Positions 18,681 through 60,240 of a DNA stretch of 64,000 nt are shown one piece after another. The position numbers and the translations under genes were made by a program. Origin of the DNA: Candidatus Babeliales bacterium (lineage in GTDB: Bacteria > Babelota > Babeliae > Babelales > JANWKD01); the NCBI GenBank assembly GCA_963722075.1, contig CAVRJM010000001.1:416001-480000 (forward strand). The letters run 5' to 3'. How positions within the stretch are numbered: position 1 is the stretch's first letter; each line of letters starts with the position of its first letter. The notes beneath the pieces were generated by a model, which saw only the letters and a program-made list of their open reading frames with translations, did not search any database and was not told the DNA's origin.

Positions 18681-18827
18681 TTACTGGATCCCCACGCTAC
18701 GCTCGGGACGACGATGGTCCAAAAACAAAAGAACGTCGTTGCGAGTTTATCCGACTTCGCCAAGGCTACTTCGGACAGGAGAAGCAACTGCGTCCGCCGT
18801 AGTTTTAACGAAGGCTGGATCCAGTAA
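18681..18827. repeat. Palindromic repeat cluster A (RPE/REP-like pair with two nested ~30-nt hairpins)
   Basis: CTGGATCCCCACGCTACGCTCGGGACGAC plus GTCGTTGCGAG..GAAGCAA..TCCAG interrupted at 18750-18779 and 18788-18819. Confidence 0.85.
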
Positions 18828-18864
18828 TCTATTTAAGTCTTTTAATTCTATACTTTAAAGGCAG

Positions 18865-19530
18865 TCATTTAACTAATTCATAAATATGAACAGGAGTGGA
18901 ACTGGACCAGGTCATTGGCAAATTCATCGTAGTTATTAATTTAAAATTTTTGTTATCGGGTAACGATTTTAACGTAATTATTCGTAGGCCCGGTTTTAAA
19001 GTTGCTAATTTCGCAGTAATTTGTTGCATCAATTCTGAAGAAAAACAAGTTGAACACATAAAAAAAATGGTCACCTCATTTAAGTTAACATTAAGGATAT
19101 TATCATTATAAAATTCAAGAATACGGTTGTCTGGTAGCTTTTTATCTTTGCGCAATGCCTCTTTAACAGTGAGCGCCTTATTATACCGTTCTTTAGAAAG
19201 CTCTATGCCGATACTTTTTTTTACTGGCGATGAAAGCAAAAACTGGATAACTAATTTTCCTACACCACATCCAGCGTCAGCAAAAACATCTGTTTTCTTT
19301 GGCTGAAGATAATTAATTAATTTTTCTACTGAATCGCAGGTAATTTCTCCATACGTTGAAGCGCACCCGTTTTTTTTAATATGCTCTTCATCTTCTTTTG
19401 AAATCCCAAAACCGCTAACAGTATTATAGTACTGATCAATAATTTTTTTACATTCAGCAGTGTTATCAAGAGAATAGCTCTTGTTAGCTAGTAAAATCAT
19501 GATGAATATAAAATAGTTATTTGCTTTCAT
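18865..19530 (-). CDS. Class I SAM-dependent methyltransferase, DOT1-like, with signal peptide
   Basis: TYGEI, FADAGCGVGK, GIELSKER, FMCSTCF, LKPG motifs. Confidence 0.8.
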   Translation of the reverse strand: MKANNYFIFIMILLANKSYSLDNTAECKKIIDQYYNTVSGFGISKEDEEHIKKNGCASTYGEITCDSVEKLINYLQPKKTDVFADAGCGVGKLVIQFLLSSPVKKSIGIELSKERYNKALTVKEALRKDKKLPDNRILEFYNDNILNVNLNEVTIFFMCSTCFSSELMQQITAKLATLKPGLRIITLKSLPDNKNFKLITTMNLPMTWSSSTPVHIYELVK

Positions 19531-19610
19531 AAAATCCCCTTATAAAAAATATATAAATATCCCTTGTATTAATAGTAAAGTGAATTACGAATGTAAATCA
19601 ATGTTATAAA

Positions 19611-21485
19611 ATGTTTAATCATACTATGATACTTAATTTATTTATTCACTGGATCCTTACGTTCCGTCTCCGTTTAATCCAGCCGTCGCTAAAAAAGCTA
19701 TGGCGGAGTAAACAACTTCGCCGGACACGCGCTTGCTATTACGGAATCCGGCGTAGCCTTAGCAAAGTCGGACGCGCGCTCCTCAGGATGACATTCACAG
19801 GTCTTCTTGTCATTCTGATCCGCCATCGCCCAAGGCTAAGGCGCGACAAGGGCCGCCTGCCCCGTCGAAGCTTAACGAAGACGGGTAGGAATCCAGTTAT
19901 AGAACTAATTCCTTATCGAGTTGTATGGATAGTTATATTTGGATTATTGAATTTAGAAAATCCTACTAGAGCCCAACCAAAATCAACATTTCTTTCTTGC
20001 CATGAGTTACAGGAATATCAAAAGCGTAACCCACAGGCGCTGTGGCATATTACTTGTCCCACTACCGGTTTAGTATCAGAAGAAAAAATTAAAACCTCTT
20101 ATGCACCGCATTTATTTAGCTTATGGCAATTAGCCCCTAAAAAAGGTGCTGGTATTACTATTGCATTATTTGATACGGGGGTAGCAGCATTCCAAACGGA
20201 ACATACCTGGTGCAAACGCCATCCACAACTGGTGTTTCCTCAAGATTTAATTAATAACTATTTAAATATAACCAAAACATACGAATTAGAATCGTTAGCT
20301 ACTTATATTGAATCAATAACAGAAATCAATCCTGAAAACACCCAATTAATATCATGGATCAATGAATATTGCATAAACGGTAGTAAAAAACCGATGATAG
20401 ATTTTATTACTATGCACAACAAGCCGCTAAATCTTATTGAATCAATCGTACATGGAAGGCGGGGCATTAAACCGGGGGGTGCCATTCGCTTTTTTTCGCC
20501 AATTGAATTGCAAAATCCATCTGGCAAAGCAATTTTGGAACTATTGCCTATTGCATTTAGCACGCAGCACCATGATATTTATTGTAGCCATGGCACTCAT
20601 ATGTATGGCTTAATTAATGCGCAACCGATATCATCATGCGGTGTGGTTGGTATTGCACCCAATGCGCGTTGCGTTATGTATAAAATAGCTAAAGAAATGG
20701 GAAAAACCGATACCGCATTATTATTAAAAGGACTCAAAGAAGCGCGCGTTATTCAACCCGATATTATTAACTTAAGCTTAAAGATTAACGAAACAAACAA
20801 AGAAACATTAAATGAGCTGGCAGCCCAATTACGGTTTTTTAACTACAGTATTGCAGCCAGCGGCAATGAGCTAGATACTACAAGAAGAAGATCGCTCCCG
20901 TATTCTTTAACACAATTACCAGTTACGTGGACCGTTGGCGCATACGCATATCATGGTAATAGCTATACCGTTGCCCCATTTTCTCAATATCAAAAGGGAA
21001 TGGGACCTCATTTTGTAGCACCAGGTGATGAAATTATTAGTACTGCCGTACGGTACACCAATTATAAACAAGAAAATGGCTATCTATGCATGAGTGGGAC
21101 ATCGATGGCAGCAGCACTCATGTCGGGGTTTTTGGCGCTTATTTTGGCAGAATTTCAACATGATTTTACTAAAGAACAAATTTTACAGGTATGTATGTAC
21201 GCAGCGATCAAATTGGGCCGAACACCTGAATGGTTTGACAGTTCATTATATGGCGTTGTTGATATGCGAACGGCATTATTTATGCTTTGGGTTGCTCGAG
21301 CCATCAAAGAAAAGAAGATTGTTAATTATGATTTTGAAAAAAATTTTAACCATATTATAACCGTTATCAAACAATGCTTGAAAGATCAAAAATGGGCCTT
21401 AAAGAATAAAAAACCAAATTTAAGTATAATTATTAACTATTATGCTAATAAGGTAATAGATGAACTTCAACAAGAGCAAGAATAA
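19611..21485 (+). CDS. S8 subtilisin-like serine protease; start uncertain, N-terminus repeat-derived
   Basis: Catalytic DTG, HGTH, AASGN, SGTSMA. Confidence 0.85.
   Translation: MFNHTMILNLFIHWILTFRLRLIQPSLKKLWRSKQLRRTRACYYGIRRSLSKVGRALLRMTFTGLLVILIRHRPRLRRDKGRLPRRSLTKTGRNPVIELIPYRVVWIVIFGLLNLENPTRAQPKSTFLSCHELQEYQKRNPQALWHITCPTTGLVSEEKIKTSYAPHLFSLWQLAPKKGAGITIALFDTGVAAFQTEHTWCKRHPQLVFPQDLINNYLNITKTYELESLATYIESITEINPENTQLISWINEYCINGSKKPMIDFITMHNKPLNLIESIVHGRRGIKPGGAIRFFSPIELQNPSGKAILELLPIAFSTQHHDIYCSHGTHMYGLINAQPISSCGVVGIAPNARCVMYKIAKEMGKTDTALLLKGLKEARVIQPDIINLSLKINETNKETLNELAAQLRFFNYSIAASGNELDTTRRRSLPYSLTQLPVTWTVGAYAYHGNSYTVAPFSQYQKGMGPHFVAPGDEIISTAVRYTNYKQENGYLCMSGTSMAAALMSGFLALILAEFQHDFTKEQILQVCMYAAIKLGRTPEWFDSSLYGVVDMRTALFMLWVARAIKEKKIVNYDFEKNFNHIITVIKQCLKDQKWALKNKKPNLSIIINYYANKVIDELQQEQE
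19641..19896. repeat. Palindromic repeat cluster B (pair with five nested hairpins)
   Basis: TTTATTCACTGGATCCTTA matches the reverse complement of 60171-60189; GCTCCTCAGGATGACATTC resembles the reverse of the unit at 37253-37292; GC-rich inserts. Confidence 0.85.
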
Positions 21486-21514
21486 AAATTATTTCCGTTG
21501 AATATATACTATTG

Positions 21515-21542
21515 TTTTAACATAATATGCATTATCGGTTTA
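21515..21542 (-). other. dif: dif site (XerCD chromosome dimer resolution site)
   Basis: Minus strand TAAACCGATAA-TGCATA-TTATGTTAAAA versus E. coli dif GGTGCGCATAA-TGTATA-TTATGTTAAAT; genes converge on it. Confidence 0.8.
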
Positions 21543-22038
21543 ATAAATTATTATTCCTTTGCTGACTCCATAAGCAACATAACGTAACGGCTAACGCATC
21601 AGTAACATCTTTTTTATCCGGGGCATTAAGTAATGGAAATAGTCTCATAACAACGCGCGCTACTTGATCTTTATCGGCACCACCAAATCCCGTTACTGAT
21701 AATTTAATTTCTCGGGGAGCAAATTCTGATAAATTCAATTGATAGGTATCTGCTAATAAATAAACAATACCGCGTAAATAGCCAAGTTTTAAAAAATTTT
21801 GTGCATTTTTGCCCAAAAACGGTGTTTCTAATGCTATAGTTGTTATTTGTAATAATTGAATCTTCTGGGTAAAAAATCTATGAAAAATTCCTATGCGCTC
21901 GGGAATTGGTTTTGTTGATGACATTTTTAAATATCCATAATCAATAAGCTGCGCTTGGTGGCCCTCTTTTTTTAATATTCCATATCCCGTTACAGATAAT
22001 CCCGGATCAATGCCTAAAATTATGGTTTTATTGTTCAT
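21532..22038 (-). CDS. ruvC: Holliday junction resolvase RuvC
   Basis: ILGIDPG, TGYG, ALE, GFGGADKDQV, DVTDALAV. Confidence 0.95.
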   Translation of the reverse strand: MNNKTIILGIDPGLSVTGYGILKKEGHQAQLIDYGYLKMSSTKPIPERIGIFHRFFTQKIQLLQITTIALETPFLGKNAQNFLKLGYLRGIVYLLADTYQLNLSEFAPREIKLSVTGFGGADKDQVARVVMRLFPLLNAPDKKDVTDALAVTLCCLWSQQRNNNLLNR

Positions 22039-22115
22039 AATTAAAATCTTGTTTTTTTCATTTCTATTCGTTTACTATCAATTACATAAAAAACAGGTAT
22101 ATGCAAGGGAAAAAA

Positions 22116-22949
22116 ATGAAAAATATGAGAAATATTTTTTACTTATTATTTATTTTTTCTTCTTTAAAAGGCTCCTTGCTTGAAGATAATTTAAATAGTT
22201 TAAAGGAAAAGCTTTCTTCATTACATACTTATTTAACCGGAGAAAGAACGACCATATCCTCTTCTGGCCAACACAATATAATTATTCTTGCATACGATAA
22301 TTTAATAGAGTTTGCTCAGGAGTTAGTTGCCAGTAAATTTAGGCCAACTCCCAATATCAATTTTTCATTTAATTATGATGCCCTACCCCTTGAAAATAGT
22401 AAGTCGCGCTTTGTAGCACCAACTATTGCTCAAGAGAAAACCAACGAAAATAAAAATCTATGGTACGCTATCAGTAAATATACCTCATTTGATGAGGCAT
22501 ACCAGGCATTAGAACAACAACTGGCTGGAAACCAGACTGGTGATTTTTATGATATTCGTGAGATTCGCTGGCTAAGAAAAATCAAACCAGGAGAAAAAAC
22601 GCCAGATGAGCGGCTCGTTAGTTTTGGCATGTTACCACATAACGATTGGGTTGAAAAATTACCAGATCCTGCTGGCACAACACTTTCCATAGAGAAGATT
22701 GATCAACTTATTAATTTTGCGCAATCACATAATGCGGATATAATTTTTTGGCTTTCATATTGGCCGCGAACATTACCGGAAGAAGCGCTCAATAAACTAT
22801 TACAGGATGACACCTTATATAATAATACAAAAAAATATATTCAAATGTTGCCAAGTCAAATAAGTAAAGGTTTTTTTGAAAATGCTGTTCTAAGCGGTAA
22901 ACAAGCTATAGAAGAACTTCAATCTGCCATGAGAAAAAGGAAAATGTAA
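22116..22949 (+). CDS. Hypothetical secreted protein with N-terminal Leu-helix module
   Basis: Signal peptide then LEDNLNSLKEKLSSLHTYL; ORF open from 22101. Confidence 0.72.
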   Translation: MKNMRNIFYLLFIFSSLKGSLLEDNLNSLKEKLSSLHTYLTGERTTISSSGQHNIIILAYDNLIEFAQELVASKFRPTPNINFSFNYDALPLENSKSRFVAPTIAQEKTNENKNLWYAISKYTSFDEAYQALEQQLAGNQTGDFYDIREIRWLRKIKPGEKTPDERLVSFGMLPHNDWVEKLPDPAGTTLSIEKIDQLINFAQSHNADIIFWLSYWPRTLPEEALNKLLQDDTLYNNTKKYIQMLPSQISKGFFENAVLSGKQAIEELQSAMRKRKM

Positions 22950-23650
22950 TGAAGAAAATCATTTTATTATTATTAATTATTAGTCATCAATTATTATATA
23001 GTGTTGGACTTGAAGATTTATTAAGAGACTTGAACAACAAACTCAAAGCATTACAAATTAACTTAACCAAGCCAGGAATGATGCAAGCTCCTTTCTTTGA
23101 AAGTGTTCAAGGCTCATTACCTCAACCATCGCAACAACCAAAAGAGCGGCGTGAAAGACAAAGAAAAGGATTTATGACGAAGCTTGCTCCTGAATTATTG
23201 TATCAAGCACAACCGATTCAAGTTGCTTCAAATCTTGTCGAAGGAAGATCCGGAAAAACAGAACAGTACCTTTTAAATAAATTAAATGTAATTTCAGGTT
23301 ATGATTTACAGCCATTGAAAGATCCAATGAATCCTGCAAAAATAGGTTTTTGGATAGATTATGTTACGGCTCGTGCTTTTATTGCTGATGTACAAAAAGA
23401 AGCAAAAGATTTTTATAATAATATTGAAAATTTATTTTATATTTATATCGTTACTGAGTCAAATGTTCAATATCCACTTATTGAGGATGAGCAAAGTGGT
23501 TTCTTTGCCTATCCCATATTAATAAGATTGCATGGAAATGATGATCCAGAACAGTTCATTTCTCAAGAAGGTAAGAATAATATTGAACGAATTCGCCAAC
23601 GTATACAGAAAATACAGTCAGAAGTACGGCCTGGATTTTATGAAATATAG
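22949..23650 (+). CDS. Hypothetical secreted protein with N-terminal Leu-helix module
   Basis: MKKIILLLLII signal then LEDLLRDLNNKLKALQINL; TAATG overlap with the previous gene. Confidence 0.75.
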   Translation: MKKIILLLLIISHQLLYSVGLEDLLRDLNNKLKALQINLTKPGMMQAPFFESVQGSLPQPSQQPKERRERQRKGFMTKLAPELLYQAQPIQVASNLVEGRSGKTEQYLLNKLNVISGYDLQPLKDPMNPAKIGFWIDYVTARAFIADVQKEAKDFYNNIENLFYIYIVTESNVQYPLIEDEQSGFFAYPILIRLHGNDDPEQFISQEGKNNIERIRQRIQKIQSEVRPGFYEI

Positions 23651-23653
23651 TTA

Positions 23654-25036
23654 TTATTCTTCATAATCGGTATCTTCAAAACGCACAATATCGCGCACAT
23701 AATTAAGAAATACGGTACCCGTTGGCCCATTACGTTGCTTACCTACAATAAGCTCAGTAAGTGATGGGTTTTCTGTTTCGGGATTGTATACTACATCTCG
23801 GTAGACAAACATAATGAGATCGGCATCTTGTTCAATTGCTCCCGATTCACGCAAGTCTGATAGCATAGGGCGTTTATCCATGCGGCTATCAACGGCACGG
23901 GATAATTGTGAAAGTGCAATAACGGGAATATTAAGTTCTTTTGCAAGCGCTTTAAGTGAGCGCGATATTTCTGAAACTTCCTGATGACGATTTTCATGCT
24001 TACGATTAGAATGTAACAATTGTAAGTAATCAATAATAAGAAAATCTAATTTATGCTCCGCTTTTAATTTGCGTGCTTTGGTACGCAAATCCATCACCGT
24101 TACCATGGCCGTGTCATCAATAAAGAGATTCAAATTAGAAAGCTGTCCGGCAACATTAGTAAGTTCAAACCATTCGTCAGAGCTTATGGTTGCATTTCTA
24201 ATATTATGGTGTGCAATGGTGGTTTGCATGGATAGAAGTCGTAGAGTAAGTTGCTCGGCGGCCATTTCTAATGAAAAAAAGCCAACGGTATATCCTTGGG
24301 AGGCTGCCGTTATTGCAAAATTTAGTGATAACGCTGTTTTTCCCATGGAAGGACGTGCTGCAACAACAATAAGGTCGCCGTTTTGAAATCCCGATGTCAT
24401 GGTATCTAATTTTTTATATCCAGAGGTGATCCCCGTAATGCCCTTTATTTGACTTTTAATATCCGATAAATGTTGGAACGTTTTTTTAAGCCATATATTG
24501 AGTTGTACAAACGTTTGCTGTGATCGCTTATTAGAAATTTGAAAAATAGTTTTCTCTGCTAAATCTAATACTGCTTCTATCTCTTTTTCATTTTGATCAT
24601 AGCAATTGGTAATAATTTGAGCGGCAGAATGAATAAGTTCACGTAATATTGCTTTTTCTTTAATAATTTGGGCATGTTGCCCAATAAGGCCAACCGAAGG
24701 AATATCTTCTTGTAAAGAAATCAAATAGGTAATACCGCCTATTTCTTGTAAATGTCCTTTTTTATCAAGCTCATCCTGGAGCGTAATAAGATCTAATTTT
24801 TTAAAACTTTGAGTAAGTTCAAGTGCTGTTTTAAAAATAACTTTATGATGAACATTATAAAAATCATCAGGAATCAAAATCTCAGCAATTTGATTTATCG
24901 ATTCATCATTGAGTAAAAGAGCACTCAATACTGCCCGTTCAGCTTGTTCACTAAAGGGAAGTCGCTGTCCAATAACTTTCTGTATTTGTTCTTCTTTAAC
25001 GCGTTGGGCATAAGATGCATGGGTGTCCTTACTCAT
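23654..25036 (-). CDS. dnaB: Replicative DNA helicase DnaB
   Basis: AARPSMGKT, FSLEM, IDYLQL, LSQLSR, DLRESGAIEQDAD, KQRNGPTG. Confidence 0.97.
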   Translation of the reverse strand: MSKDTHASYAQRVKEEQIQKVIGQRLPFSEQAERAVLSALLLNDESINQIAEILIPDDFYNVHHKVIFKTALELTQSFKKLDLITLQDELDKKGHLQEIGGITYLISLQEDIPSVGLIGQHAQIIKEKAILRELIHSAAQIITNCYDQNEKEIEAVLDLAEKTIFQISNKRSQQTFVQLNIWLKKTFQHLSDIKSQIKGITGITSGYKKLDTMTSGFQNGDLIVVAARPSMGKTALSLNFAITAASQGYTVGFFSLEMAAEQLTLRLLSMQTTIAHHNIRNATISSDEWFELTNVAGQLSNLNLFIDDTAMVTVMDLRTKARKLKAEHKLDFLIIDYLQLLHSNRKHENRHQEVSEISRSLKALAKELNIPVIALSQLSRAVDSRMDKRPMLSDLRESGAIEQDADLIMFVYRDVVYNPETENPSLTELIVGKQRNGPTGTVFLNYVRDIVRFEDTDYEE

Positions 25037-25061
25037 TGATGAACCTATATAGTGATGTTTT

Positions 25062-25508: not shown

Positions 25509-25577
25509 AAGATTCTTTCGTAAAAAAACTGTTATTAAAATTATAGCCTAAAAAAAAGGCCTTGAAAATGCGTATTA

Positions 25578-26891: not shown

Positions 26892-27315
26892 AATCGCTAA
26901 TTTTATAGTCTACAACACCTTCTTTGAATTCGCGTATTAGACTGCAAGAATGTATATATGGATATGGTGTTCGCATGGTTATCTTAATTATAATGGTTGT
27001 ATCATTTTTGGAAGTAAACAACACCGTACCCTTATACGTTTTATGCTGTACTACCCAACCGGGTAATTCAAATGAGAGATTCTTTTTATAATTCTCTTTA
27101 TAATAGTGAATCATTTCAAAATTATTTTTACATAAATCCAGCGCCCAAACAAGCAATGCATTGCTTGTTTGATATTGTTGATCCTGCTCCTGTTTTTTAA
27201 TAACCAAATCATGACTCGTTATAGTCAATTGCCAGCATAATAGACAAAAAATCATACAGATACTCGTAAGTAAGACCATAGTTAATAAAGCTGAACCATC
27301 TTTATATAGCATCAT
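26875..27315 (-). CDS. PilX/GspK-like minor pilin
   Basis: G|SALLTMVLL class III-like leader without Glu5; last of three coupled pilin-like genes. Confidence 0.6.
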   Translation of the reverse strand: MMLYKDGSALLTMVLLTSICMIFCLLCWQLTITSHDLVIKKQEQDQQYQTSNALLVWALDLCKNNFEMIHYYKENYKKNLSFELPGWVVQHKTYKGTVLFTSKNDTTIIIKITMRTPYPYIHSCSLIREFKEGVVDYKISDYVVGS

Positions 27316-27935
27316 AAATACCTATTATTAAAACAGATAGTTTGTTCAGCGCTAAATGGTGATGATAAGCCTACATCAACGGTTATTGAATTAGTAATTA
27401 AGGTAAGCATATGCTTAGATGCATTATAGTGATAATGAAAAGTAAGTGATTGAATATCATCAATAATAATATTGGTACGCTTAGAGCCCCATACGTGCTG
27501 ATGCGGGAAATAGGTTCCTGTTATATATACCAGCTTATTGTCTTGGATTGTGATACAATAATCTTTATTCTGCTTAGATGAGTGCCATAAAACACAATTT
27601 TTTTCCAATTTGTGCCACTGCTTTTTATCAGCATCAGCATTCTCAAGCTCATAACGGATGGTATTCAGCGCGTTTAAACACATAAGTTCTTTTTGTACCT
27701 GCTTACTTTCTTTTTTTAAACCGCCTATTATTTGCATTACTGCCTGCATAAAAAAAATTGATACTATACCAAAAATAGTTAAGTAAATCATGAATTCAAT
27801 GATAAAAAAACCATTATGAATGATTTTATTAATGGATGGCCGCGCAAGCTCGCCATGACAACTTTCATTTCGATTGTCATTCCGAACGTAGTGTGGGAAT
27901 CCATTAAATAATTCTCCTCTTTTCTTAAGCCTCAT
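27312..27935 (-). CDS. PilW/PulJ-like minor pilin with a repeat inserted in its leader
   Basis: G|FFIIEFMIYL prepilin motif; ATGA overlaps at both ends. Confidence 0.7.
   Translation of the reverse strand: MRLKKRGELFNGFPHYVRNDNRNESCHGELARPSINKIIHNGFFIIEFMIYLTIFGIVSIFFMQAVMQIIGGLKKESKQVQKELMCLNALNTIRYELENADADKKQWHKLEKNCVLWHSSKQNKDYCITIQDNKLVYITGTYFPHQHVWGSKRTNIIIDDIQSLTFHYHYNASKHMLTLITNSITVDVGLSSPFSAEQTICFNNRYL
27829..27907. repeat. Palindromic repeat cluster C, inside coding sequence
   Basis: TTAATGGATGGCCGCGCAAGCTCGCCATGACA...TGTCATTCCGAACGTAGTGTGGGAATCCATTAA; resembles 60106-60181 and 37211-37241. Confidence 0.85.
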
Positions 27936-30567: not shown

Positions 30568-30587
30568 GATTCGTTAGATTAATAGAA

Positions 30588-35234: not shown

Positions 35235-35313
35235 TGTCATCCTGAGCGCGTCCGACTTCGCCAAGGCTCCGATGGATTCTTACGATCTTGTAAAACAAGA
35301 TCTCAGAATGACA
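35235..35313. repeat. Palindromic repeat cluster D
   Basis: TGTCATCCTGAG...CTCAGAATGACA enclosing a partial TCCGACTTCGCCAAGGCT hairpin. Confidence 0.8.
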
Positions 35314-37150: not shown

Positions 37151-37292
37151 CGTCGTTGCGAGCTCGTCGAAGCAATCCAGATTAAAAATAGAATAATGAT
37201 GAATATTTATTAATGGATCACCACGCAAGCTCGTGATGACAATGCTACCCATGAATGTCATCATGAGGAGCGTAAGCGACGTGAGGATCCAG
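37151..37292. repeat. Palindromic repeat cluster E (three uninterrupted units)
   Basis: CGTCGTTGCGAGCTCGTCGAAGCAATCCAG; TGGATCACCACGCAAGCTCGTGATGACA; GTCATCATGAGGAGCGTAAGCGACGTGAGGATCCAG. Confidence 0.88.
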
Positions 37293-38435: not shown

Positions 38436-39353
38436 TCATTTCATATCATTAAAAATTTTTTGTGCCTTAATTATTGATCGTGCGGATTTCTTCATTGTTT
38501 CCCATGGATCACCCTTTTTTTCTAAGCGTTTAAACACCGTAAAAATTGAATACCGCTGAGAATCTAATTTGGCATCATCAACTTCATGCCAATCGATGGG
38601 GGTAGCAACGGGAGCACCTGGATGCGCTCTAATAGCATAAGGTGCTACTGCAGTTGCTGTATATGAATTACGTAAATAATCTAAAAAAATTTTTTTTCCG
38701 CGTTTTGATTTACGCAGCTCCAGCGTTAAGTTATCAGGATCAACTTGTTGTAAAAAAAATGCAATATCATAGGCAAATGCACGCACTTTTTCAAAAGGCT
38801 GCTTACGATCAAGCGGAACCACCACATGCAATCCGCGCGATCCGGTGGTCATTACAAACGGCACTAAGCCAAGTTTTTCTAAAAATTCTTTAAAAAGGAG
38901 CGCCGTTTTTCTGATTTGATTAAAATCAAATTTTTCCCCGGAAGGATCTAAATCAAAAATCATACGATCGGGGTAATTGAGCTTATCAATTTTACTCAGC
39001 CAAATATGAGGCGTTAAACAAAGTTGGTTTGCTAAATAAACTAGGGTCGCTTTTTGATCAACCACAACATAATGAACAATTTTACCCTCTTCCGATTTAA
39101 TCGGTTCTAAGGTAATCCACTTAGGAAAATATTCTCCCGCGTTTTTTTGAAAAAATCCTTCTTCATTAATGCCATTAGGATACCGCAGCATAGAAACGGG
39201 TCGATTTTTCATATACGGTATCATGGTAGCAGCAATTTGGTAATAATAAGCAACTACTTCTTGTTTAGTAATTTTATCCATTGGAAACAGAATCTTATCA
39301 AGATGAGTAAGCTCAATAGTATGTCCGCTAATGGTAATATTATTTTTTACCAT
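38436..39353 (-). CDS. LigD polymerase (primase-polymerase) domain, stand-alone
   Basis: RYPNGI, FFQK, PDRMIFDLDP, TTGSRGLH, FLDYLRN, APYAIR; ORF open from 39365. Confidence 0.92.
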   Translation of the reverse strand: MVKNNITISGHTIELTHLDKILFPMDKITKQEVVAYYYQIAATMIPYMKNRPVSMLRYPNGINEEGFFQKNAGEYFPKWITLEPIKSEEGKIVHYVVVDQKATLVYLANQLCLTPHIWLSKIDKLNYPDRMIFDLDPSGEKFDFNQIRKTALLFKEFLEKLGLVPFVMTTGSRGLHVVVPLDRKQPFEKVRAFAYDIAFFLQQVDPDNLTLELRKSKRGKKIFLDYLRNSYTATAVAPYAIRAHPGAPVATPIDWHEVDDAKLDSQRYSIFTVFKRLEKKGDPWETMKKSARSIIKAQKIFNDMK

Positions 39354-39951
39354 ACTTAGCCTCAACTTGTGCTTCTTTTTTTATTTGAGCTAACGTACGG
39401 TCGGAAAGCGCTGATTTTGTTTTATTCTTTATGGCCGGAATTTTTTTATCCTCTTTCATTTTAAATATAAGCCAATTTTTTTTATCATCATGTAATTTAG
39501 TACGAACTAATGCGTACAAGCCATGTAATTTTTTACCTTCTAAATTAACTTCGATTTTCCCATCCAGCAATGCTTTTTCCATCGAAATGCCATAGGGCTC
39601 TTTAGCATTTTCAAAGGTACCGATATCCCACACCATAACCGTTCCTGCTCCATAATTTCCTTCAGGAATTACCCCTTCAAAGGTTGCGTAATCCATGGGA
39701 TGATCTTCCGTCATCACCGCTAAATGCTTTTCATTAGGATTGGTGGAAGGTCCTTTTGGCACGGCCCAAGAAACTAATACGCCATCAATTTCAAGCCTAA
39801 AATCATAATGCAAATGAGAAGCGTCATGCTTTTGAATAACAAAAATGGGATTCTTTTTTTTAGTTCTTTTAACTACCCCGCGCGGTTCAGGCGTTTTTTT
39901 AAAAGAACGTTTCTTGCGATACTCTTTTAACGGCGTTTTTTTTGTAGGCAT
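39340..39951 (-). CDS. LigD 3'-phosphoesterase domain, stand-alone
   Basis: YRKKRSFKKTPEP, FVIQKHDASHLHYDFRLE, SWAVPKGP, EDHP, YGAG; start after GGAG (ORF open from 40053). Confidence 0.92.
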   Translation of the reverse strand: MPTKKTPLKEYRKKRSFKKTPEPRGVVKRTKKKNPIFVIQKHDASHLHYDFRLEIDGVLVSWAVPKGPSTNPNEKHLAVMTEDHPMDYATFEGVIPEGNYGAGTVMVWDIGTFENAKEPYGISMEKALLDGKIEVNLEGKKLHGLYALVRTKLHDDKKNWLIFKMKEDKKIPAIKNKTKSALSDRTLAQIKKEAQVEAKYGKK

Positions 39952-40194
39952 CGAAACTCCAGAGAGAGAATTCAAAATACAAAAACAAATGAGTAAGCGG
40001 TTTAATGATATGTTCATGAGCATATGGTATAATGCCCTATTATATTTTTTCAAGAATATGAGTGGAATCTTTTAAGAGCTGTATAGCCCATTAATCCTAT
40101 TCCTGCTGTTTTCCTCTAGATTCTATTAAGTTTATATCTTTAATTACTTCTAATGCAAAAAAATTTGCTCAATTGATATAAACGTACAAATGTA

Positions 40195-40389
40195 CGTCGT
40201 TGCGAGCTTGTCGAAGCAATCCAGTCTTTTTAAAATTTTTCAAAGTTTTATCAATTTTGCTTGTGAATAATAATACTTATATTTTAAATTTAAACCTTTT
40301 AATAATTCATTCAACTTTAGCCTATCACTTTTTACAAATGCTTATTGTATTATTTTAATCTTGATTGCTTCGACAGGCTCGCAACGACG
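40195..40389. repeat. Palindromic repeat cluster F: two inverted 30-nt units around a 135-nt AT-rich spacer (MITE-like)
   Basis: 40195-40224 versus the reverse complement of 40360-40389: 28 of 30 identical. Confidence 0.85.
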
Positions 40390-51650: not shown

Positions 51651-51665
51651 TTTTCCTTCTAGAAC

Positions 51666-52262: not shown

Positions 52263-52283
52263 ATAATGCCTTTATAACAATTC

Positions 52284-53336: not shown

Positions 53337-53362
53337 TAACTATCCTTTCTTTTGGTAAAAAG

Positions 53363-53421
53363 CTGGATCACCACGCCTTGTCCGCCATAGCCTTGGCGAC
53401 GTCGGATACGCTCGTGACGAC
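53363..53421. repeat. Palindromic repeat G with a precise 30-nt hairpin insertion
   Basis: CTGGATCACCACGC[CTTGTCCGCCATAGCCTTGGCGACGTCGGA]TACGCTCGTGACGAC. Confidence 0.88.
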
Positions 53422-53621
53422 TTCCGTCGCTATTATCTCTTATCTTTTTACATGGTATGGATTCTTTTTAAGTGACCATACAATGCTCATTATTGAGTGT
53501 ATCAGTAATTATTTTCTATTTGCAACAACAAATTGATTGGTTGAAAAAAGCGCTGATTTTAACGGCGTTTTTATATAAAATAAAATTTATATAATTGTTT
53601 CAGATAGAAACAAATATGCAA

Positions 53622-54761
53622 TTATGCATCACTTTTTGACGGTTGATAAAACCGAGATTCGATTTTGTTAGAAAAATCAGGCGTAAAGCCAATAGCTTGT
53701 AGAAATTCTATAGCATCCATACCCGCTTTTGCACCATCCCCGGCCGCTGTAACACTTTTTTGATAGCGTGGATCTTCCACCGTACCGGCAGCAAATACCC
53801 CTTTTTTAGAGGTTACTTGGGTATGATCAAAAACTTTAATAAATCCTTCCTCATCAAGCTCTAAAGCATCTTTGAATAAAGCAGAACGCGGCACGAATCC
53901 AAGGGCAAAATAAACCGATTGTATTGGCATTTGAGTAGTTTTATTAGTTTTCTTATCCATAACTTCTATTGCTTCTACCCGCTCAGTACCAAGTATTCTT
54001 TTCACCTCAATATTATATTTAATTTCAATTTTACTGTTCTTTTTTAAATAATCCTGCACTATTGCGGTTGCTCGCATCTCAGGCCCACGCACCAAAAGAG
54101 TAACTTTTTTTGCAAATGCCGATAGTTGTTGCGCGCGATCTGCGGCGGCATCGCCGCCTCCTATTATGGCAACTTCTTTATCCTGATCAAAAGGAGCATC
54201 ACAAATGGAACATACCCCTATTCCTTTGCCCCAAAACTCTTTTATTCCCGGAATATCCAATGTTCTTTGCGAACCACCAGTAGCAATAATAACTGTTAAC
54301 GCCTGTATAGTTGTACCATTTGATAAGGTGATTTGGAATGGCCATTCATTAAGATTCACCTGCGAAACTTCAACTTCTTCTAATTGAGCCCCAAAATGTT
54401 GTGCCTGTGCTTTTAAATCATTCATAATATCAAGACCAGGCATTTTTTGGCGGGCAGGCCAATTTTCTACATAACTTGCTTCCGTTAATTGTCCGCCAAT
54501 TTCAGATCCTGAAATCACGCGGGTTCTGAACTTCGCTCGAGAGGTGTACATTGCCGCTGTTAATCCAGCAGGCCCTGACCCAATGACCACTACCGGTTCA
54601 ATTTCAGTTTTATTAAAGAGAGATTCGATTGGGTAATCCTTTGGATCAACCGCCGGAACCGATTGATCATCAGGCAATACAGCATAGCCAATAGAATAGA
54701 GGCTAAAAAAAACTAATATGAAAATAAGATGAAATGCCTTTTTATGCGTAACCATAGCCAT
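53622..54761 (-). CDS. trxB: Thioredoxin reductase with N-terminal signal peptide
   Basis: IGSGPAG, GGQL, VENWP, CSICD, IGGGD, GVFAAG. Confidence 0.88.
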   Translation of the reverse strand: MAMVTHKKAFHLIFILVFFSLYSIGYAVLPDDQSVPAVDPKDYPIESLFNKTEIEPVVVIGSGPAGLTAAMYTSRAKFRTRVISGSEIGGQLTEASYVENWPARQKMPGLDIMNDLKAQAQHFGAQLEEVEVSQVNLNEWPFQITLSNGTTIQALTVIIATGGSQRTLDIPGIKEFWGKGIGVCSICDAPFDQDKEVAIIGGGDAAADRAQQLSAFAKKVTLLVRGPEMRATAIVQDYLKKNSKIEIKYNIEVKRILGTERVEAIEVMDKKTNKTTQMPIQSVYFALGFVPRSALFKDALELDEEGFIKVFDHTQVTSKKGVFAAGTVEDPRYQKSVTAAGDGAKAGMDAIEFLQAIGFTPDFSNKIESRFYQPSKSDA

Positions 54762-54853
54762 TTACACTCCCCTAATTTAATGGTGAGGCGTGCTCATACA
54801 ACGGGGCTTAACTATTGTTAAGCATACATAAATGGCGCTCTTATTTTCAATAA

Positions 54854-56305
54854 TTAAGCAAGGTCCTTAAGAAATTCTGTAAGCGCCTCATACGATAAGC
54901 TACCAACCTGTTCTTTCACAAGTTTACCATTTTTGAAAACAAGTAACGTTGGTACCGACGTAATTTTGTATTCATTTGCAAGAGCAGGGATTTCGTTAGC
55001 ATTAATTTTTATAAATGTCGTGCGATCACCCATTTCAGACGCAATCTGTTCTAAAGCTGGCAGCATATATTTACATGCTGGGCACTGAGTTGTATAAAAA
55101 TCAACAATCAATATTGCTCGCTCATTACGTAAGGATTCAAATTGTTCTTTAGATGTTACCGCTAAAATAGCCTTGCTAGGTACAGAATCAATCTCGGGCT
55201 TTTTTATATCAAAATAATTAGCTTCTATTTGCTTTGCTACTTTTACATTAAATCCATGATTTTGTAAAAATCCTAAGGCATCTAAAGCCGCTTTAATACC
55301 ACTACCTGCAGCTACCCCCGCTTGCCTATATATTTTATCTTCTATATCACCCGCAGCGAAAATGCCGGGTTTAGAAGTAGCCTGCGTTTTACCAGAAGTA
55401 ATAATGTAACCATCTGCATCAGTTTTAATTTGACCATTACATAAAGAAGTAGTGTTTGGCTTATGACCAATTGCTAAAAAGACCCCGCTTACAGATTTTG
55501 TAAACGTTTCATTTGTTTTATTATTATGTATCAGAACATGCGTTACTTCAGATCCATTCCCATATATTTCTTTAACTTCGCTATTATAGAGTACTTCAAT
55601 AGAATCAACATCCTTAATGCGATCTTGCATTGCAACCGAAGCACGCATAGCATCTTTACGAACTAAAATGGTAACTTTTTTAGCATATGATGATAACTGT
55701 AATGCTTCTTCAAGCGCTGAATCACCACCACCAACTACAACAACGTCTTTATCTTTATGGAACGGTGCATCGCAAATAGCACACGTTGTTACCCCTTTCC
55801 CCCAATATTCATCTTCTCCGGGTATACCTAATTTTGCTGGTGAAGCACCTGCAGCAACTATAATTGTTAATGCATTAATTGTTTTTCCTGATTGAGTGAT
55901 AACCTTATATGGCCATACAGAACAGTCAATAGACGCGGCGCTATCATAAATAATTTCAGCACCAAAATGTTCCGCTTGTTTTTGTAAACTCAACATAATA
56001 TCTGGACCTAGTTGATCCAATAAACCAGGAAAATTTTCAACACGGGTTGTGCTTCCTAATTGTCCTCCTGGTTGAGAACCTACTAAAACTGCTGTCTTGA
56101 TTTTTCCTCGCGCTGCGTAAATGGCCGCGCTATATCCTGCACAACCTGAACCGATAATAAGGATGGGTTCGATATTTTTCTTACCTATTACCGCCGTCAT
56201 ATCAATGGGGTTAGAGCGCAACAATAAGAAAGTACCACTCAAACCAATAGTTAAAACAAACAAAGCCCCTAATAAAAATTTAATATATTTCTGCATTAAT
56301 AACAC
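54854..56305 (-). CDS. trxB: Thioredoxin reductase-thioredoxin fusion (NTRC-like) with N-terminal signal/anchor
   Basis: IGSGCAG, VENFPG, CAICD, GGGDSA, GIFAAGD; C-terminal VDFYTTQCPAC...SVPT Trx domain. Confidence 0.9.
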   Translation of the reverse strand: MLLMQKYIKFLLGALFVLTIGLSGTFLLLRSNPIDMTAVIGKKNIEPILIIGSGCAGYSAAIYAARGKIKTAVLVGSQPGGQLGSTTRVENFPGLLDQLGPDIMLSLQKQAEHFGAEIIYDSAASIDCSVWPYKVITQSGKTINALTIIVAAGASPAKLGIPGEDEYWGKGVTTCAICDAPFHKDKDVVVVGGGDSALEEALQLSSYAKKVTILVRKDAMRASVAMQDRIKDVDSIEVLYNSEVKEIYGNGSEVTHVLIHNNKTNETFTKSVSGVFLAIGHKPNTTSLCNGQIKTDADGYIITSGKTQATSKPGIFAAGDIEDKIYRQAGVAAGSGIKAALDALGFLQNHGFNVKVAKQIEANYFDIKKPEIDSVPSKAILAVTSKEQFESLRNERAILIVDFYTTQCPACKYMLPALEQIASEMGDRTTFIKINANEIPALANEYKITSVPTLLVFKNGKLVKEQVGSLSYEALTEFLKDLA

Positions 56306-56411
56306 CTTTATTACTATTTTTATTCTAAAAATAAATTGACAAAAAACCTAAAAAACTCATACTGTAAACGTTATTTTTATAGTATAACCTTAATTTTTAT
56401 AAAGGAAAAGT

Positions 56412-56933
56412 ATGTCCACCCTGTTAAATACAAAAAGAATATTTTTTTTATCATTAAGCCTCCTTATTGCCGCTCCTGTCTCTTTAAGAGCCCACACCGA
56501 TAACCTAAATCCGGCTATAGAAATTACGACAGCCGATCAATTAACATCCTTACTTAATAGTATGGACCCCGTTGAGAAGAAACAATTTGAAGAATTATTG
56601 GATGAAATTGCAATAATTTCTCATAAAGATAAGAAAGAATCTTCTGCCTTAAATCAACTAGCCGCTCTTCTTAAAAAAGTACCTTATGCTAAGCTTTCAG
56701 CAGTTGGTATTTCCCTTATATTTGCTATTTTATACTGGGAATATGTAGCTCCTTATCTCAAAAAGAAATACCCATCAGAACAAGGTGAAACCTTAGTTGA
56801 ACTTCCTAAATTAGTAATGGGTTCTTTAATCTTGGATGAAATTAAAGATTTCTTAAAGGAAATGCGTCTTGCTTTTAAGGAAGACGTTTATTCTTTAGTT
56901 ACAGCAACCAAAAAGGCAATTGCTGCATTATAA
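56412..56933 (+). CDS. Hypothetical membrane protein
   Basis: Signal peptide plus one internal TM helix; SD-like AAGGA; followed by a terminator. Confidence 0.7.
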   Translation: MSTLLNTKRIFFLSLSLLIAAPVSLRAHTDNLNPAIEITTADQLTSLLNSMDPVEKKQFEELLDEIAIISHKDKKESSALNQLAALLKKVPYAKLSAVGISLIFAILYWEYVAPYLKKKYPSEQGETLVELPKLVMGSLILDEIKDFLKEMRLAFKEDVYSLVTATKKAIAAL

Positions 56934-56943
56934 TATTGTTAAC

Positions 56944-56981
56944 AAAATATAAGCCTGGCACATTTGTCAGGCTTATATTTT
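56944..56981 (+). terminator. Rho-independent terminator
   Basis: AAAATATAAGCCTGGCA/TGTCAGGCTTATATTTT stem. Confidence 0.8.
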
Positions 56982-57153
56982 ATACCGTTAAATTATTATT
57001 AACATTTAGTAATTTTTTTATTGATTCTATTTTATTTTGATAAAGATTTATTTTTATTATTATTTGACATGCCTTATAAGGAATTTTATTATTGATATAA
57101 TCAAATAATAATGAAATATTCACTAACTGTTCATCGCTAAAGGTCAAATTTCA

Positions 57154-60093
57154 ATGAATTTTCACGTATATCGTCCCTATATATATATTTTCCTGTATAT
57201 TTGTTCCACCTTAGCAATAGCAGAAAATCCTACTCAAGCAATTGACGAAGTTTTTATTGATGAGCAAGAATTTGAAAATTTGTCACCCGCCAGCCCTCAT
57301 CTTCCGGTAACACCGCAACCACAAAGCCCCGCACAACCAATCGAGGATGTTACTCCTCAGGCCTCAACCATAAATCAAAAGCAGCTTGATGTGTTAGTGG
57401 TAACATTAGAAAATAACTTTAAACAATTAGATGTTATCTTAGAACAAATCGCCTTAGTAATTAATAATAATCAAATACGAAAATTATCTACAAAAGATGT
57501 AATTTTAGATGAAATTATTAAAATTCGCTCTTTAGTAGGTATGATCATACAAAATATTGCTTCTATTAATACCCCAGATAAAGCAACTCAACTGATTGAA
57601 ATTGCTCAAAAATTAACAAGCCATGTACAATATCTTTTAACCACGAATCTTGTTAATTTTAAGCCTTTTGACTTTGAAAAAGCCTTTGCACCAACTACAC
57701 GGGTATCTTTACCAACAACCTATGGTTTTGAACAATTAGAAAAAATGGCACTGCAAAATACGCTTACCCTTGGTACCTTGAAGGCGCATTCAGAAAATGT
57801 TGGGCTCAATAGCTTTCATATTTTTTATCGAAAACTAGAAAAACTCAACCAAGAATATAAGATTCTTCATAAATTAACCATTGCAGCTGGGGTGGGATTG
57901 GCGTTGCTCTGGTTTGATTTCTTATGTGATCGCGCGTTTTCAGTAAAATTACAAGAATGGTGGAATAAATTATTTAATATACAACCGGAACCTTCTCATA
58001 CAGTATTGAATCCCTCCTTATTAACTACTTCCCCACCACAAAATTCAAGCACCATTACTCAATTAATTACCTCTAATCAAGTAACTCCCGCAGTTACTAA
58101 TAATAAACCCACTGTTGCATCAGTTAAACCATCGAGCCCTTCTGAGACTAGCAATATGCCAACAGATGTTACTGATTTTCAAAAAGGAGTAGATTTTGGA
58201 AAAGGTGTAGTACAGGGAAAATGGCTTGCACAGCAAGAGCTTCGTGAGAAAATGTTACAGCAACAACAAACTGCTACATCTAAAAGCATGTGGGGCAATT
58301 GGATTTTATCATTAAAAAATTTCCTTGGTAATAGAGTTCCTGATACACGCGCTGGTATCGAGGCTATCCCACCTGAGCAACGTGGTATGGTAACTTATAC
58401 ACAAAACTTCTTTGAACGTCATTTAAAATTATTTACGTTCGCCTTCACCCCCATTGCCCTTTTTGATCTGTTTAAACCTACCCTTAAAGAATGGGGAACC
58501 GGTAGCTATAATTGGTTAATGGCCAAAGTGGAGCATGTTACCGCCTTTTTACGGGGTGGACCGGTACGGCGTCAGATGGATATTTGGGCAGAAAAAGAGA
58601 TTACGATTACCTTTGATGATGTTATTGGCAATGAACATGCCAAAAAAATATTAATGCGTATTGTTGATTATATTATCGATTATGAAAACCGCGATCGCCA
58701 AGGAATTATACCAGAAACAGGCATTCTATTAGTAGGACCGCCACGTACTGGTAAAACATACTTAGCGCAAGCATTAGCGGGCACCATCAAAAAAGGCTTG
58801 ATTGAAAGTGGTAATTTTGAAACAATGCGTTACTTAGAACTTACTACCGCAGAACTAAAACAACATGGTATTAGCAATATTCTTTTAGGCGCTAAGACTT
58901 TTGCCCCTATTATTATCTTTATCGATGAAATTGATAGCGGTGGATTCCAACGTGAACGTGATGCTGCTGCATTGGGTGAACTGCAAGTGGCTATGAGTAC
59001 CCTTAATAGAGATAAATCTAAAAAAGTAATCATTTTAGCAGCTACCAATAAACCTGAAAATCTTGATTATTCACTTCTTGAACCAGGACGATTTGGTAAA
59101 CAAATTGACTTCACTAAGCCAACGTTCACCGAACGCAAAGAATATCTCACCCGTGAATTATCAAAACGCTCAGCACTTATCGATGAACAATATATTGATA
59201 AACTTGCCCACCAAAGTGAAGATTCCACCTATGACGCATTGCATGAGGTTATTGTAACGGCATTACAAAAAGCTAAATCACGAGGATCAGTACTCACCTG
59301 GAACGATTTAGACGAAGCATTTGATGAAGATGTTAATAAAATTATCTTAGATGACCATATGTTACCGCCAGCAGAACAATATACTATTGCAGCCCATCAA
59401 GCTGGACATGCTTATATGCGTATTTTAAGTAATGCGCGGCTACAATTAACCAAAGTTACGATCAAGCCAACCTCTGCTAAAGTTAATGAACAAGCAGTAA
59501 TTGCTAAATATTTTGACAATAATAATAAGAAAAAAGATCAAAAAGAAACCAAAACAATTGAATATGGTAAAGTATTTACTGCTCATGATACCGGCGCACT
59601 TAAATTTGAAAATGCGCAGGATTTACGCCATGAATTACTCATCAGCTTAGCAGGTCACGTGGCAGAAAAATTACTTTTTGATGCAACCGGATATAGTTAT
59701 CATAGTCATGATAATGAAGACGCATTAAATATTGCTAAGCATATTGTTTTTGAGGGCATTCCAGACAAAGAAATGCCAAAATCAATTCGTGAAGAATATC
59801 TGATGAAGGCATATGATTTGGTAAAAGAGTATCAACAAAAAGCAATAGAACTATTAACGCAGCACAAAGAAGAACTCATTGTTATTACCAATATGTTGTA
59901 TGAACAAAAAACATTACTGGCAACCGATATTATAGAGATATTGCAGCTTCTAAAAGAGGAAGACGGGCATCCTCAGGATGATACTGCTGATGAACAGGAT
60001 AGCTCAGAAGAAGTTGATGAAGAAGTAGTAGATGAGACTCCTTCTTTTACAGAAGCTGATAATGCGCTCATCCCTGATGTTGAATTTGCCTAA
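57154..60093 (+). CDS. FtsH-like AAA+ ATPase with degenerate M41 protease domain
   Basis: FDDVIG, GPPRTGKT, IFIDEID, AATNKP, PGRF; HQAGH in place of HEAGH; LAGHVAE. Confidence 0.85.
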   Translation: MNFHVYRPYIYIFLYICSTLAIAENPTQAIDEVFIDEQEFENLSPASPHLPVTPQPQSPAQPIEDVTPQASTINQKQLDVLVVTLENNFKQLDVILEQIALVINNNQIRKLSTKDVILDEIIKIRSLVGMIIQNIASINTPDKATQLIEIAQKLTSHVQYLLTTNLVNFKPFDFEKAFAPTTRVSLPTTYGFEQLEKMALQNTLTLGTLKAHSENVGLNSFHIFYRKLEKLNQEYKILHKLTIAAGVGLALLWFDFLCDRAFSVKLQEWWNKLFNIQPEPSHTVLNPSLLTTSPPQNSSTITQLITSNQVTPAVTNNKPTVASVKPSSPSETSNMPTDVTDFQKGVDFGKGVVQGKWLAQQELREKMLQQQQTATSKSMWGNWILSLKNFLGNRVPDTRAGIEAIPPEQRGMVTYTQNFFERHLKLFTFAFTPIALFDLFKPTLKEWGTGSYNWLMAKVEHVTAFLRGGPVRRQMDIWAEKEITITFDDVIGNEHAKKILMRIVDYIIDYENRDRQGIIPETGILLVGPPRTGKTYLAQALAGTIKKGLIESGNFETMRYLELTTAELKQHGISNILLGAKTFAPIIIFIDEIDSGGFQRERDAAALGELQVAMSTLNRDKSKKVIILAATNKPENLDYSLLEPGRFGKQIDFTKPTFTERKEYLTRELSKRSALIDEQYIDKLAHQSEDSTYDALHEVIVTALQKAKSRGSVLTWNDLDEAFDEDVNKIILDDHMLPPAEQYTIAAHQAGHAYMRILSNARLQLTKVTIKPTSAKVNEQAVIAKYFDNNNKKKDQKETKTIEYGKVFTAHDTGALKFENAQDLRHELLISLAGHVAEKLLFDATGYSYHSHDNEDALNIAKHIVFEGIPDKEMPKSIREEYLMKAYDLVKEYQQKAIELLTQHKEELIVITNMLYEQKTLLATDIIEILQLLKEEDGHPQDDTADEQDSSEEVDEEVVDETPSFTEADNALIPDVEFA

Positions 60094-60105
60094 GGATGTT
60101 ATTAA

Positions 60106-60240
60106 TTAATGGATTCCCACGCAAGCTCGGAATGACAAAAAGAACGATGAATGTCATCCTGAACGAAGTGTAAGGATCCAGTGAATAAATCCAATAACAT
60201 TTAACAAAATCTGGATTGCTTCGACAAGCTCGCAACGACA
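60106..60240. repeat. Palindromic repeat cluster H (three uninterrupted units)
   Basis: TGGATTCCCACGCAAGCTCGGAATGACA; GTCATCCTGAACGAAGTGTAAGGATCCAG; CTGGATTGCTTCGACAAGCTCGCAACGAC. Confidence 0.88.

Follow-up and report, generated by a model that had tools for sequence, protein, structure and literature searches.

Two nested repeats in the window

The stretch analysed here (the window) comprises 64,000 nucleotides (nt), positions 416001-480000 of contig C1 in genome G000, which measures 1.47 Mb, has a GC content of 34.7% and is 99%-complete. Its DnaN shares 57-64% identity with that of three Babeliales/Dependentiae genomes and 20-23% with that of an alphaproteobacterium and of a Candidate Phyla Radiation genome, which places the organism in the phylum Dependentiae. 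Among ordinary genes (recF, a methyltransferase, a subtilase, murD, ftsW/rodA, and trxB-like and ftsH-like genes), the window carries eight clusters of a palindromic repeat, here named host repeat A, together with a second hairpin, here named insert B, whose strand is given as that on which its tail reads first (CYTG...CGGA). A previous sequence-only reading had described these host clusters and a set of insert copies, which we found at or within a few bases of the positions that it gave, and had proposed that B is a minimal non-autonomous element with sharp ends that is inserted in another repeat without duplication and mobilised in trans. The present analysis supports this proposal, and it establishes the boundaries of the B unit, its targets, and its physical and phyletic linkage to a small GIY-YIG nuclease gene. 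Rfam gave zero matches in the window and zero at 18250-19950.

An insertion of exactly 30 nt splits the host unit at 53363 at CACGC^TACGC. The deletion that had been read at this site was confirmed, since removal of 53377-53406 leaves a 29-nt unit from which four copies in the genome differ by at most 2 substitutions; six alternative cuts (shifts of 1-2 nt and removals of 29 or 31 nt) gave no near copies. Contigs from the runs X1 and X2 span the filled site with neither differing letters nor gaps, and therefore the filled site is not an assembly artefact. All eight scored B copies of the window lie inside or abut a host unit, and the copy starting at 19663 is a B whose own loop contains a second B, which makes this a three-tier site.

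In the whole genome, we detected 156 B copies (0-2 in shuffled sequences) and, using a descriptor, 216 empty host units (0 in three shuffles). Hosts make up 0.6% of the genome, so that about 0.8 B would be expected inside them by chance, and 106 of the 156 copies lie in or against a host unit (45 in a host that is restored on excision and 61 abutting a host half); the nesting is genuine. Of about 67 filled host clusters, 33 hold two B. The earlier impression that B occurs only inside the host did not hold at this scale: 25 copies are within 200 nt of the 3' ends of tRNA or tmRNA genes, and others are in the loops of B or in unrelated hairpin families. The remaining 25 copies are unplaced, many of them in decayed hosts or in another B; Rfam searches around 12 of these found one tRNA and otherwise no match. 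Likewise, the claim that removal of the inserts restores host units is clean for part of the copies and not for most of the 106, with 14 excisions restoring the 12-nt junction of an empty unit at the exact cut, 10 more doing so with a cut one base longer, and other offsets giving 0-4.

Anatomy of the insert and its registers

The B unit, 30-33 nt long, is built of a 6-bp stem with a tail of 4-5 nt, an internal loop that is conserved, a short inner stem and an apical loop of varying length. The internal loop has TTCG or TACG opposite CTWC on one strand, and the other strand is GA-rich. The tails are of the CTTG, CCTG or CGTG type, and a GTAG-like word is found within the internal loop, not at the end. 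With alignment anchored only on CCA and the inner motif, so that pairing was not required, three stem positions were Watson-Crick in 55, 49 and 55 of 59 copies (shuffle maxima 39, 38 and 52), and all four Watson-Crick pair types were present at the first two of them. This covariation indicates that the stem is kept as a structure while its sequence is free.

Insertion takes place at eight or more registers in G000 and on both strands (24 versus 21 per strand among the 45 restored hosts). Three variants of the apical loop are entered at their edge; further registers are in either arm of the internal loop, at the stem foot and in the loop of another B. Junction ambiguity is 0 nt in 69 of 106 cases and 1-3 nt in 37, never exceeding 3 nt, which together with the exact gaps at orthologous Bradyrhizobium sites described below bears out insertion free of duplication. 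There is no fixed target word, as 31 different 4-mers precede B on its 5' side and 48 adjoin its other side at the 106 junctions. Of 84 canonical copies, 80 have A or T as the base 5' of B, with hosts at 44% A+T, although the copies are not independent of one another. B subtypes keep to particular registers, and many filled units have one odd junction in common.

Two other classifications of the insert were considered and rejected. The CCA following the tRNA-end copies is not a target duplication, as elsewhere the tail is followed by CC and any base. Neither is B a classical miniature inverted-repeat transposable element as defined in the accessible text of PMC3733652 (terminal inverted repeats, target duplication, 70-300 bp), being 30-33 nt, asymmetric in its tail and duplication-free.

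Filled and empty alleles in other genomes

Alignment of filled with empty alleles across related genomes, which the sequence-only reading had put forward as a check, gave sharp junctions in Bradyrhizobium. In an orthologous spacer represented by 30 loci, 11 loci are empty, 2 are filled and 17 have no recognisable host unit; both filled alleles carry exactly 30 nt at the same point, and the inserts are two different B variants. In two further host families, an exact 32-nt B stands against the empty allele of L373 (one genome) and an exact 33-nt B against those of L380-L382 (three genomes), both in the apical loop. The three host families with an exact B gap are mutually unrelated hairpins without homology to B. 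When strict B matches in two Bradyrhizobium genomes were inspected by eye, all 16 were in hairpin repeats: 11 in repetitive extragenic palindromes (REPs) with a CGTC tag, while the rest occupy a hybrid, a repeat bearing a GTAG tag, a second type of CGTC repeat and a CCTCTCCC hairpin. Bradyrhizobium also has a cassette of tRNA, B and nuclease gene (L119, and L132 of Bradyrhizobium centrosematis). B invades at least four other repeat families, cultured bacteria providing exact alleles of both the filled and the empty kind.

Some Bradyrhizobium loci were uninformative in this comparison. The orthologous site of L220 is replaced or deleted, and the empty units seen there are paralogous; L374, L375, L376, L377 and L383 are rearranged at the other two sites. 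At the test site, L366 (genome G177) keeps the left third of B alone, and this allele is a possible case of imprecise B loss. The strict pattern had zero matches in three other Alphaproteobacteria.

Among relatives of G000, G004 has a different host subtype in both empty (L078) and filled (L073) form, and G003 has B with compensatory stems. The spacers corresponding to 53363 and 60106 contain no repeat in G001, and G003 and G004 have other host subtypes at other positions. From metagenomes, 80 loci were kept out of at least 121 stretches; a full B was recognised by the strict expression in 40 of them, 29 of which have the 5' host half, and the other 40 are decayed copies or chance matches. The same kind of nesting is seen here, at GA^AGC registers.

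A nuclease gene linked to the insert

GIY-YIG genes flanked by one or the other repeat, which the sequence-only reading had suggested searching for, exist for both, and the clade found with the host is distinct from that found with the insert. G000 has eight GIY-YIG matches, corresponding to one long protein and seven short genes. Three of the short genes (one intact), all outside the window, are ssnA-like and are discussed with the host repeat. Among the other four, one is clearly intact (G000:C1:371244, encoding 79 residues and the only intact gene in G000 of the type whose protein ends in KSGSGR), one lacks an ATG and two are broken; three of the four follow tRNA genes. Their leader consists of a B-family hairpin starting from the CCA of the tRNA and an AT-rich spacer, followed by the gene, and in the two best-kept leaders a second, inverted B precedes the gene.

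B-family hairpins start at the CCA of 27 of the 37 tRNA/tmRNA genes in G000, 12 with the internal loop of B and 15 with a variant inner arm. These 15 variant hairpins (CATTT/AAATG inner arm) are near-identical, which suggests a recent sweep or conversion. No B-family hairpin is found at the three tRNAs with a CAT anticodon or at those for Trp, Ile, Ala, Cys, Pro and Val(GAC).

In G000 and its relatives, 35 short GIY-YIG rows (out of 56 loci, excluding those with more than 2 stops or longer than 99 residues) were placed in a tree, which showed three groups: the Ssn type, the KSGSGR-ending type (support 99/100), and a third type with its own hairpin. B is in the flanks of 20 of 21 KSGSGR rows and in those of none of the 6 Ssn rows; it is also present at 3 of 8 rows of the third type, in each case inside that group's own flanking hairpins. 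A tRNA or tmRNA lies upstream in 12 of the 21 KSGSGR rows. Note that a loose expression for the third hairpin family mislabelled four B-linked rows, and the tree group statistics for B and C were therefore set aside. The third group (L010, L012, L015, L017 and L026, from G040, G030, G018, G033 and G037) has inverted hairpins of the CCCTGAG...GTCGAAGGG type. At least three nuclease-hairpin pairs thus coexist in the phylum, and B nests in the third hairpin as well.

The association extends over a wider sample. Among the best 80 of at least 592 GTDB loci of the nuclease (Alphaproteobacteria, Verrucomicrobia, Acidobacteria, Candidate Phyla Radiation and others), B occurs within 250 nt upstream in 44, compared with 5 of 432 control blocks, and a tRNA or tmRNA lies within 500 nt in 51. 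We also searched 151 genomes of the phylum for B using the strict pattern (its reversed control gave 0), finding B in 68, the KSGSGR gene in 92 and both in 57. B is present in 57 of 92 gene-positive and 11 of 59 gene-negative genomes (odds ratio 7.1, with kin that are not independent). The ssnA gene, surveyed in the same genomes at E 1e-25, is found in 24, of which 13 have B, showing no association (p 0.37).

In the KSGSGR protein, the GIY-YIG catalytic-type residues Y5, Y17, G19, R27, H31 and E63 are invariant in 20 of 20 sequences, and the protein scores over the PF01541 cut-off. Its AlphaFold model (pLDDT 94.8) was matched best by Foldseek to At-HIGLE and Slx1 (E 1e-4 to 3e-3, TM 0.72-0.76), in weak agreement with the sequence search.

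The host repeat and the ssnA-like genes

Host A has a 5' (C/T)GTC tag, a stem opened by AT and a short tail fitting CCA(G), and on these features it is a CGTC-tagged REP, or Ssn-related motif (SRM), following the definitions of tag, stem and tail in the accessible text of PMC3733652 and PMC11893778, respectively. Inverted host units bracket all three ssnA-like genes, the architecture described around ssnA in the available text of Chenal et al. 2025 (PMC11893778). According to the same text, SsnA binds its own hairpin only as single-stranded DNA, cuts a few nt upstream of it, and tolerates extensions at the hairpin loop. The ssnA-like genes form a separate clade (support 97/100), and their length, flanks and clade make them candidates for the SsnA type and for membership of CDD cd10448. 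As nucleases of the SsnA type, their proteins would cleave single-stranded DNA specifically, on the upstream side of the motif.

Repeat units and neighbouring genes

The mapped units are listed in Table 1. Some of them overlap reading frames. The subtilase frame (19611-21485) is free of stops through the whole repeat cluster at 19649-19896, and its orthologues start about 45-50 residues before the conserved WH motif, directly after the repeat cluster; either the start is displaced in G000 or about 83 repeat-derived codons stand ahead of the signal peptide. The first 40 codons of the frame 27312-27935 (-) run through the host pair at 27832-27904, probably reflecting an over-long start call. In the genome, frames of at least 150 residues contain 7 of the 156 B and 10 of the 216 host copies, nearly all at 5' ends, and such overlaps are probably over-long start calls too. 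In-frame insertion into proteins, as with the Rickettsia palindromic elements, was accordingly rejected as a general feature given the few copies in long frames. The sole clear candidate for it is a host-unit pair at G000:C1:1048228-1048300, mid-way in a 1.7-kb frame.

Table 1. Units of host repeat A and insert B in the window
Feature	Positions	Strand
Host A (CGTC-tagged REP / SRM), empty	18684..18712	-
Host A, subtype that flanks ssnA-like genes, holds two inverted B	18735..18824	+
Insert B within host loop region	18750..18779	-
Insert B at host stem foot (GGA^TCCA register)	18788..18819	+
Host A, long subtype, holds two B, one of them containing a third	19649..19792	-
Insert B at internal loop of host, own loop interrupted	19663..19729	-
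Insert B inside apical loop of another B (third tier)	19678..19713	-
Insert B, recurrent subtype, tail altered	19743..19772	+
Host A, decayed, holds two B	19809..19896	+
Insert B, decayed	19819..19850	-
Insert B	19856..19885	+
Host A, empty	27832..27859	-
Host A, empty	27876..27904	+
Two host units fused, partial B at joint	35236..35312	.
Insert B, partial: tail absent, right arm continues into next host unit	35251..35276	-
Host A, empty	37152..37180	+
Host A, empty	37213..37240	-
Host A, long subtype, empty	37257..37292	+
Host A, empty	40196..40224	+
Host A, empty, slightly decayed; inverted partner of the 40196 unit	40361..40388	-
Host A, filled at apical-loop edge	53363..53421	-
Insert B, exactly 30 nt, duplication-free	53377..53406	+
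Host A, empty	60109..60136	-
Host A, empty	60153..60181	+
Host A, empty	60211..60239	-

Three neighbours of the repeats are also recorded here. Downstream of recF, a 72-nt noncoding element (18492-18564) has 89-90% identity in G001, G003 and G004 while its flanks diverge; it has a promoter-like stretch upstream, a CU-rich run resembling an anti-Shine-Dalgarno sequence and a terminator-like hairpin with varying loop-side pairs, and it is a candidate small RNA with no Rfam match. A DOT1-like methyltransferase gene with a predicted export signal (18865-19530, -) is kept in G003 and G004. A stand-alone gene for a LigD 3'-phosphoesterase domain (39340-40053, -) is present in this reduced intracellular genome, and its end-processing activity could be relevant to the repair of nuclease nicks.

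Proposed mobilisation of the insert

From these results, we consider that B is a 30-33-nt hairpin located at tRNA and tmRNA CCA ends and inside other hairpins, and that it is probably mobilised in trans by an 80-residue, Slx1-like GIY-YIG nuclease, namely that of the KSGSGR clade. By analogy with SsnA, this nuclease would bind B as single-stranded DNA and cut beside its tail; it would also nick other hairpins, at unpaired positions laid open during replication, in the way that Slx1 acts on branched DNA. Enzymes of the Slx1 type cut at junctions between single and double strands, and the Slx1-like fold thus suggests nicking at such junctions, where B lands, which would fit insertion at unpaired hairpin positions. 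B would then be joined in, either via strand transfer by the enzyme or via ligation by host repair. Some filled host units would subsequently be copied again in their entirety by the agent that spreads the host, for which the ssnA-like genes are the probable candidates, and the tolerance of SsnA for loop extensions would permit this. Such copying of whole units is probable because one odd junction and fixed subtypes of B recur in many filled units, and B copies would therefore outnumber insertion events.

Several observations weigh against this reading. We infer the action of the KSGSGR clade on B, and the linkage could be that of a gene and a hairpin merely travelling together to tRNA ends. 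The joining step is, to our knowledge, without precedent for GIY-YIG enzymes, which are known as hydrolases. Whereas ssnA lies between its inverted hairpins, the KSGSGR gene is found outside the pair; 11 of the 68 B-positive genomes show no gene of this clade, and the strict B pattern is missing from 35 of the 92 gene-positive genomes. Single B copies fold no better than shuffled sequences (z -0.2 to -1.7), and the hairpin status of B consequently rests on covariation, not on energy. Only about 24 of the 106 host-embedded copies restore an existing empty junction, and a class of about 22 B has an altered tail and extra bases. Finally, DNA identity between G000 and its relatives is 65-77%, too low for the window sites to be compared with orthologous ones, and reads from four of the seven listed runs contained neither an empty 53363 allele nor its joint.

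A bolder version, which we put forward tentatively and would sooner doubt than accept, is that the 80-residue enzyme is a complete single-strand transposase that cuts out or copies the 30-nt hairpin and joins it, duplication-free, into any DNA hairpin at sites where bases are unpaired, with tRNA 3' ends and rival repeats (Ssn, RAYT-type and others) among the targets. If true, a single-strand GIY-YIG transposase would represent a new transposition chemistry and B one of the smallest mobile units, a parasite of other repeats; an enzyme that cuts hairpin loops or joins DNA would also provide a very small tool for single-stranded DNA.

Four rival explanations were weighed, and each fails on at least one count. 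B could spread by template switching or gene conversion at fork-stalling hairpins with no dedicated catalyst, the Slx1-like gene either homing to tRNA ends and dragging B with it or nicking hairpins without recognising B. Host-embedded B often form inverted pairs that fold together, as in the clusters holding two; the constancy of B subtypes at particular registers is what copying of whole composites predicts; and the 37 junctions with 1-3 nt of ambiguity point the same way. However, both ends of B are base-identical in three unrelated host families lacking homology to B, 69 of the 106 junctions have no microhomology, and the A or T preference 5' of the (non-independent) canonical copies exceeds the composition of the hosts, so that we regard spread of this kind as unlikely.

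Alternatively, SsnA, the enzyme of the host, might make the breaks, B being captured there as a passenger. The bracketing of the ssnA-like genes by host units and the majority of G000 copies lying in hosts are consistent with such capture, as is the tolerance of loop extensions reported in the accessible text of PMC11893778. On the other hand, 55 of the 68 B-positive genomes show no ssnA, B is also found at tRNA ends and in other hairpin families, and the cut made by SsnA falls outside the motif, on the upstream side of its tag, whereas B lies inside the motif; capture by SsnA therefore appears quite improbable.

The driver that the sequence-only reading favoured, an HUH/Y1 transposase (RAYT or the TnpA of IS200/IS605) acting in trans, is very improbable. 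The lack of target duplication, the hairpin anatomy and the inverted doublets agree with it, G000 does have one intact IS200 TnpA gene, and at the tRNA CCA and the stem-foot TCC registers the right arm of B could pair with the next 3 nt, as Y1 guides do. This TnpA (C1:156495), the sole Y1 gene in G000, has ends of its own, and by eye neither B nor the host occurs in the 330 nt upstream or the 400 nt downstream. A survey of RAYT with NF047646 over the 151 phylum genomes, from which IS200 TnpA was left out, found it in one genome and not in G000, compared with B in 68. IS200/IS605 elements have a fixed tetra- or pentanucleotide target beside the left end, whereas the 31 different 4-mers 5' of B include no such fixed word. 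Lastly, a SINE-like RNA route, in which B is released as a pre-tRNA 3' trailer and reverse-transcribed into nicks, is extremely unlikely, for although B-family hairpins begin exactly at the CCA of most tRNA genes and GIY-YIG domains prime reverse transcription in Penelope elements, RVT_1 has zero matches in the 99%-complete G000, many host-embedded B belong to the second, inverted kind, which does not stand at a trailer start, and neither target duplications nor added tails are present.

Comparison with known systems

Taking mobilisation by the KSGSGR nuclease as the preferred reading, the B system works like the Ssn/SRM pair or the RAYT/REP pair while belonging to neither. Our literature search found no description of B, its tRNA link or its nesting; subscription papers, supplements, and the figures of PMC11893778 and PMC3733652 were not covered and could show such copies.

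The closest solved folds of the B-linked protein are those of Slx1 and At-HIGLE, but the bacterial protein is a bare domain of 80 residues, multi-copy and often broken in G000, and tied to tRNA ends and a repeat. REPIN/RAYT and IS200/IS605 elements, in the accessible text of Bertels and Rainey 2011 (PMC3116915), resemble B in being miniature non-autonomous hairpins with inverted doublets, a single-copy or low-copy enzyme in trans and no duplication. By the features that define IS200/IS605, B shares the absence of duplication and lacks the fixed target and ends in common with TnpA; by those that define REPs and REPINs of RAYT, it lacks both the RAYT gene and the 5' GTAG tag. Its linked enzyme is of the GIY-YIG type, not HUH.

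CGTC-tagged REPs, in the accessible text of Di Nocera et al. 2013 (PMC3733652), are like host A in their CGTC or TGTC tag, AT first pairs, CCA tail and dimers. That text mentions in passing REPs regularly found inside other palindromes (GTAG-23 of T. roseum, CGTC-1 of H. neapolitanus and GTAG-15 of A. variabilis), but there the REP is the insert and has a single target, whereas here REPs are the targets. B differs from those REPs in having neither a GTAG nor a CGTC tag, in entering several host families and tRNA ends, and in having a candidate enzyme; the accessible text names no enzyme or transposase for CGTC repeats, and the term 'GIY' is absent from it. With respect to the spread of REP-like palindromes, the case of B adds exact alleles both with and without the insert, together with a substrate of 30 nt and a candidate enzyme of 80 residues, all in cultured Bradyrhizobium.

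The Ssn system, as presented in the accessible text of PMC11893778, is close to both repeats. Host A shares with it the GTC tag, the AT-opened stem, the CCAG tail and the inverted copies around GIY-YIG genes of 90-100 residues, and B shares a short 5' tag, a stem, a GA-rich internal loop, an apical loop that varies, and linkage to a single-domain GIY-YIG gene. However, the tail of B is of the CYTG type and its stem sequence is free, as opposed to the CGTC tag, AT-opened stem and CYRG tail of SRMs. Its nuclease, which may work like an Ssn, belongs to a separate clade (99/100) with 79-80 residues, a KSGSGR end and an Slx1-like fold, and the gene sits downstream of a hairpin pair anchored at a tRNA instead of being enclosed by inverted copies. 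Furthermore, the Ssn literature in that text reports cutting only, with neither insertion, a tRNA link nor nesting. The present results widen the view of Ssn systems: where a single pair of nuclease and hairpin was described, there are at least three clades with hairpins of their own, and the hairpin of one clade invades those of the others as well as most ends of tRNA genes.

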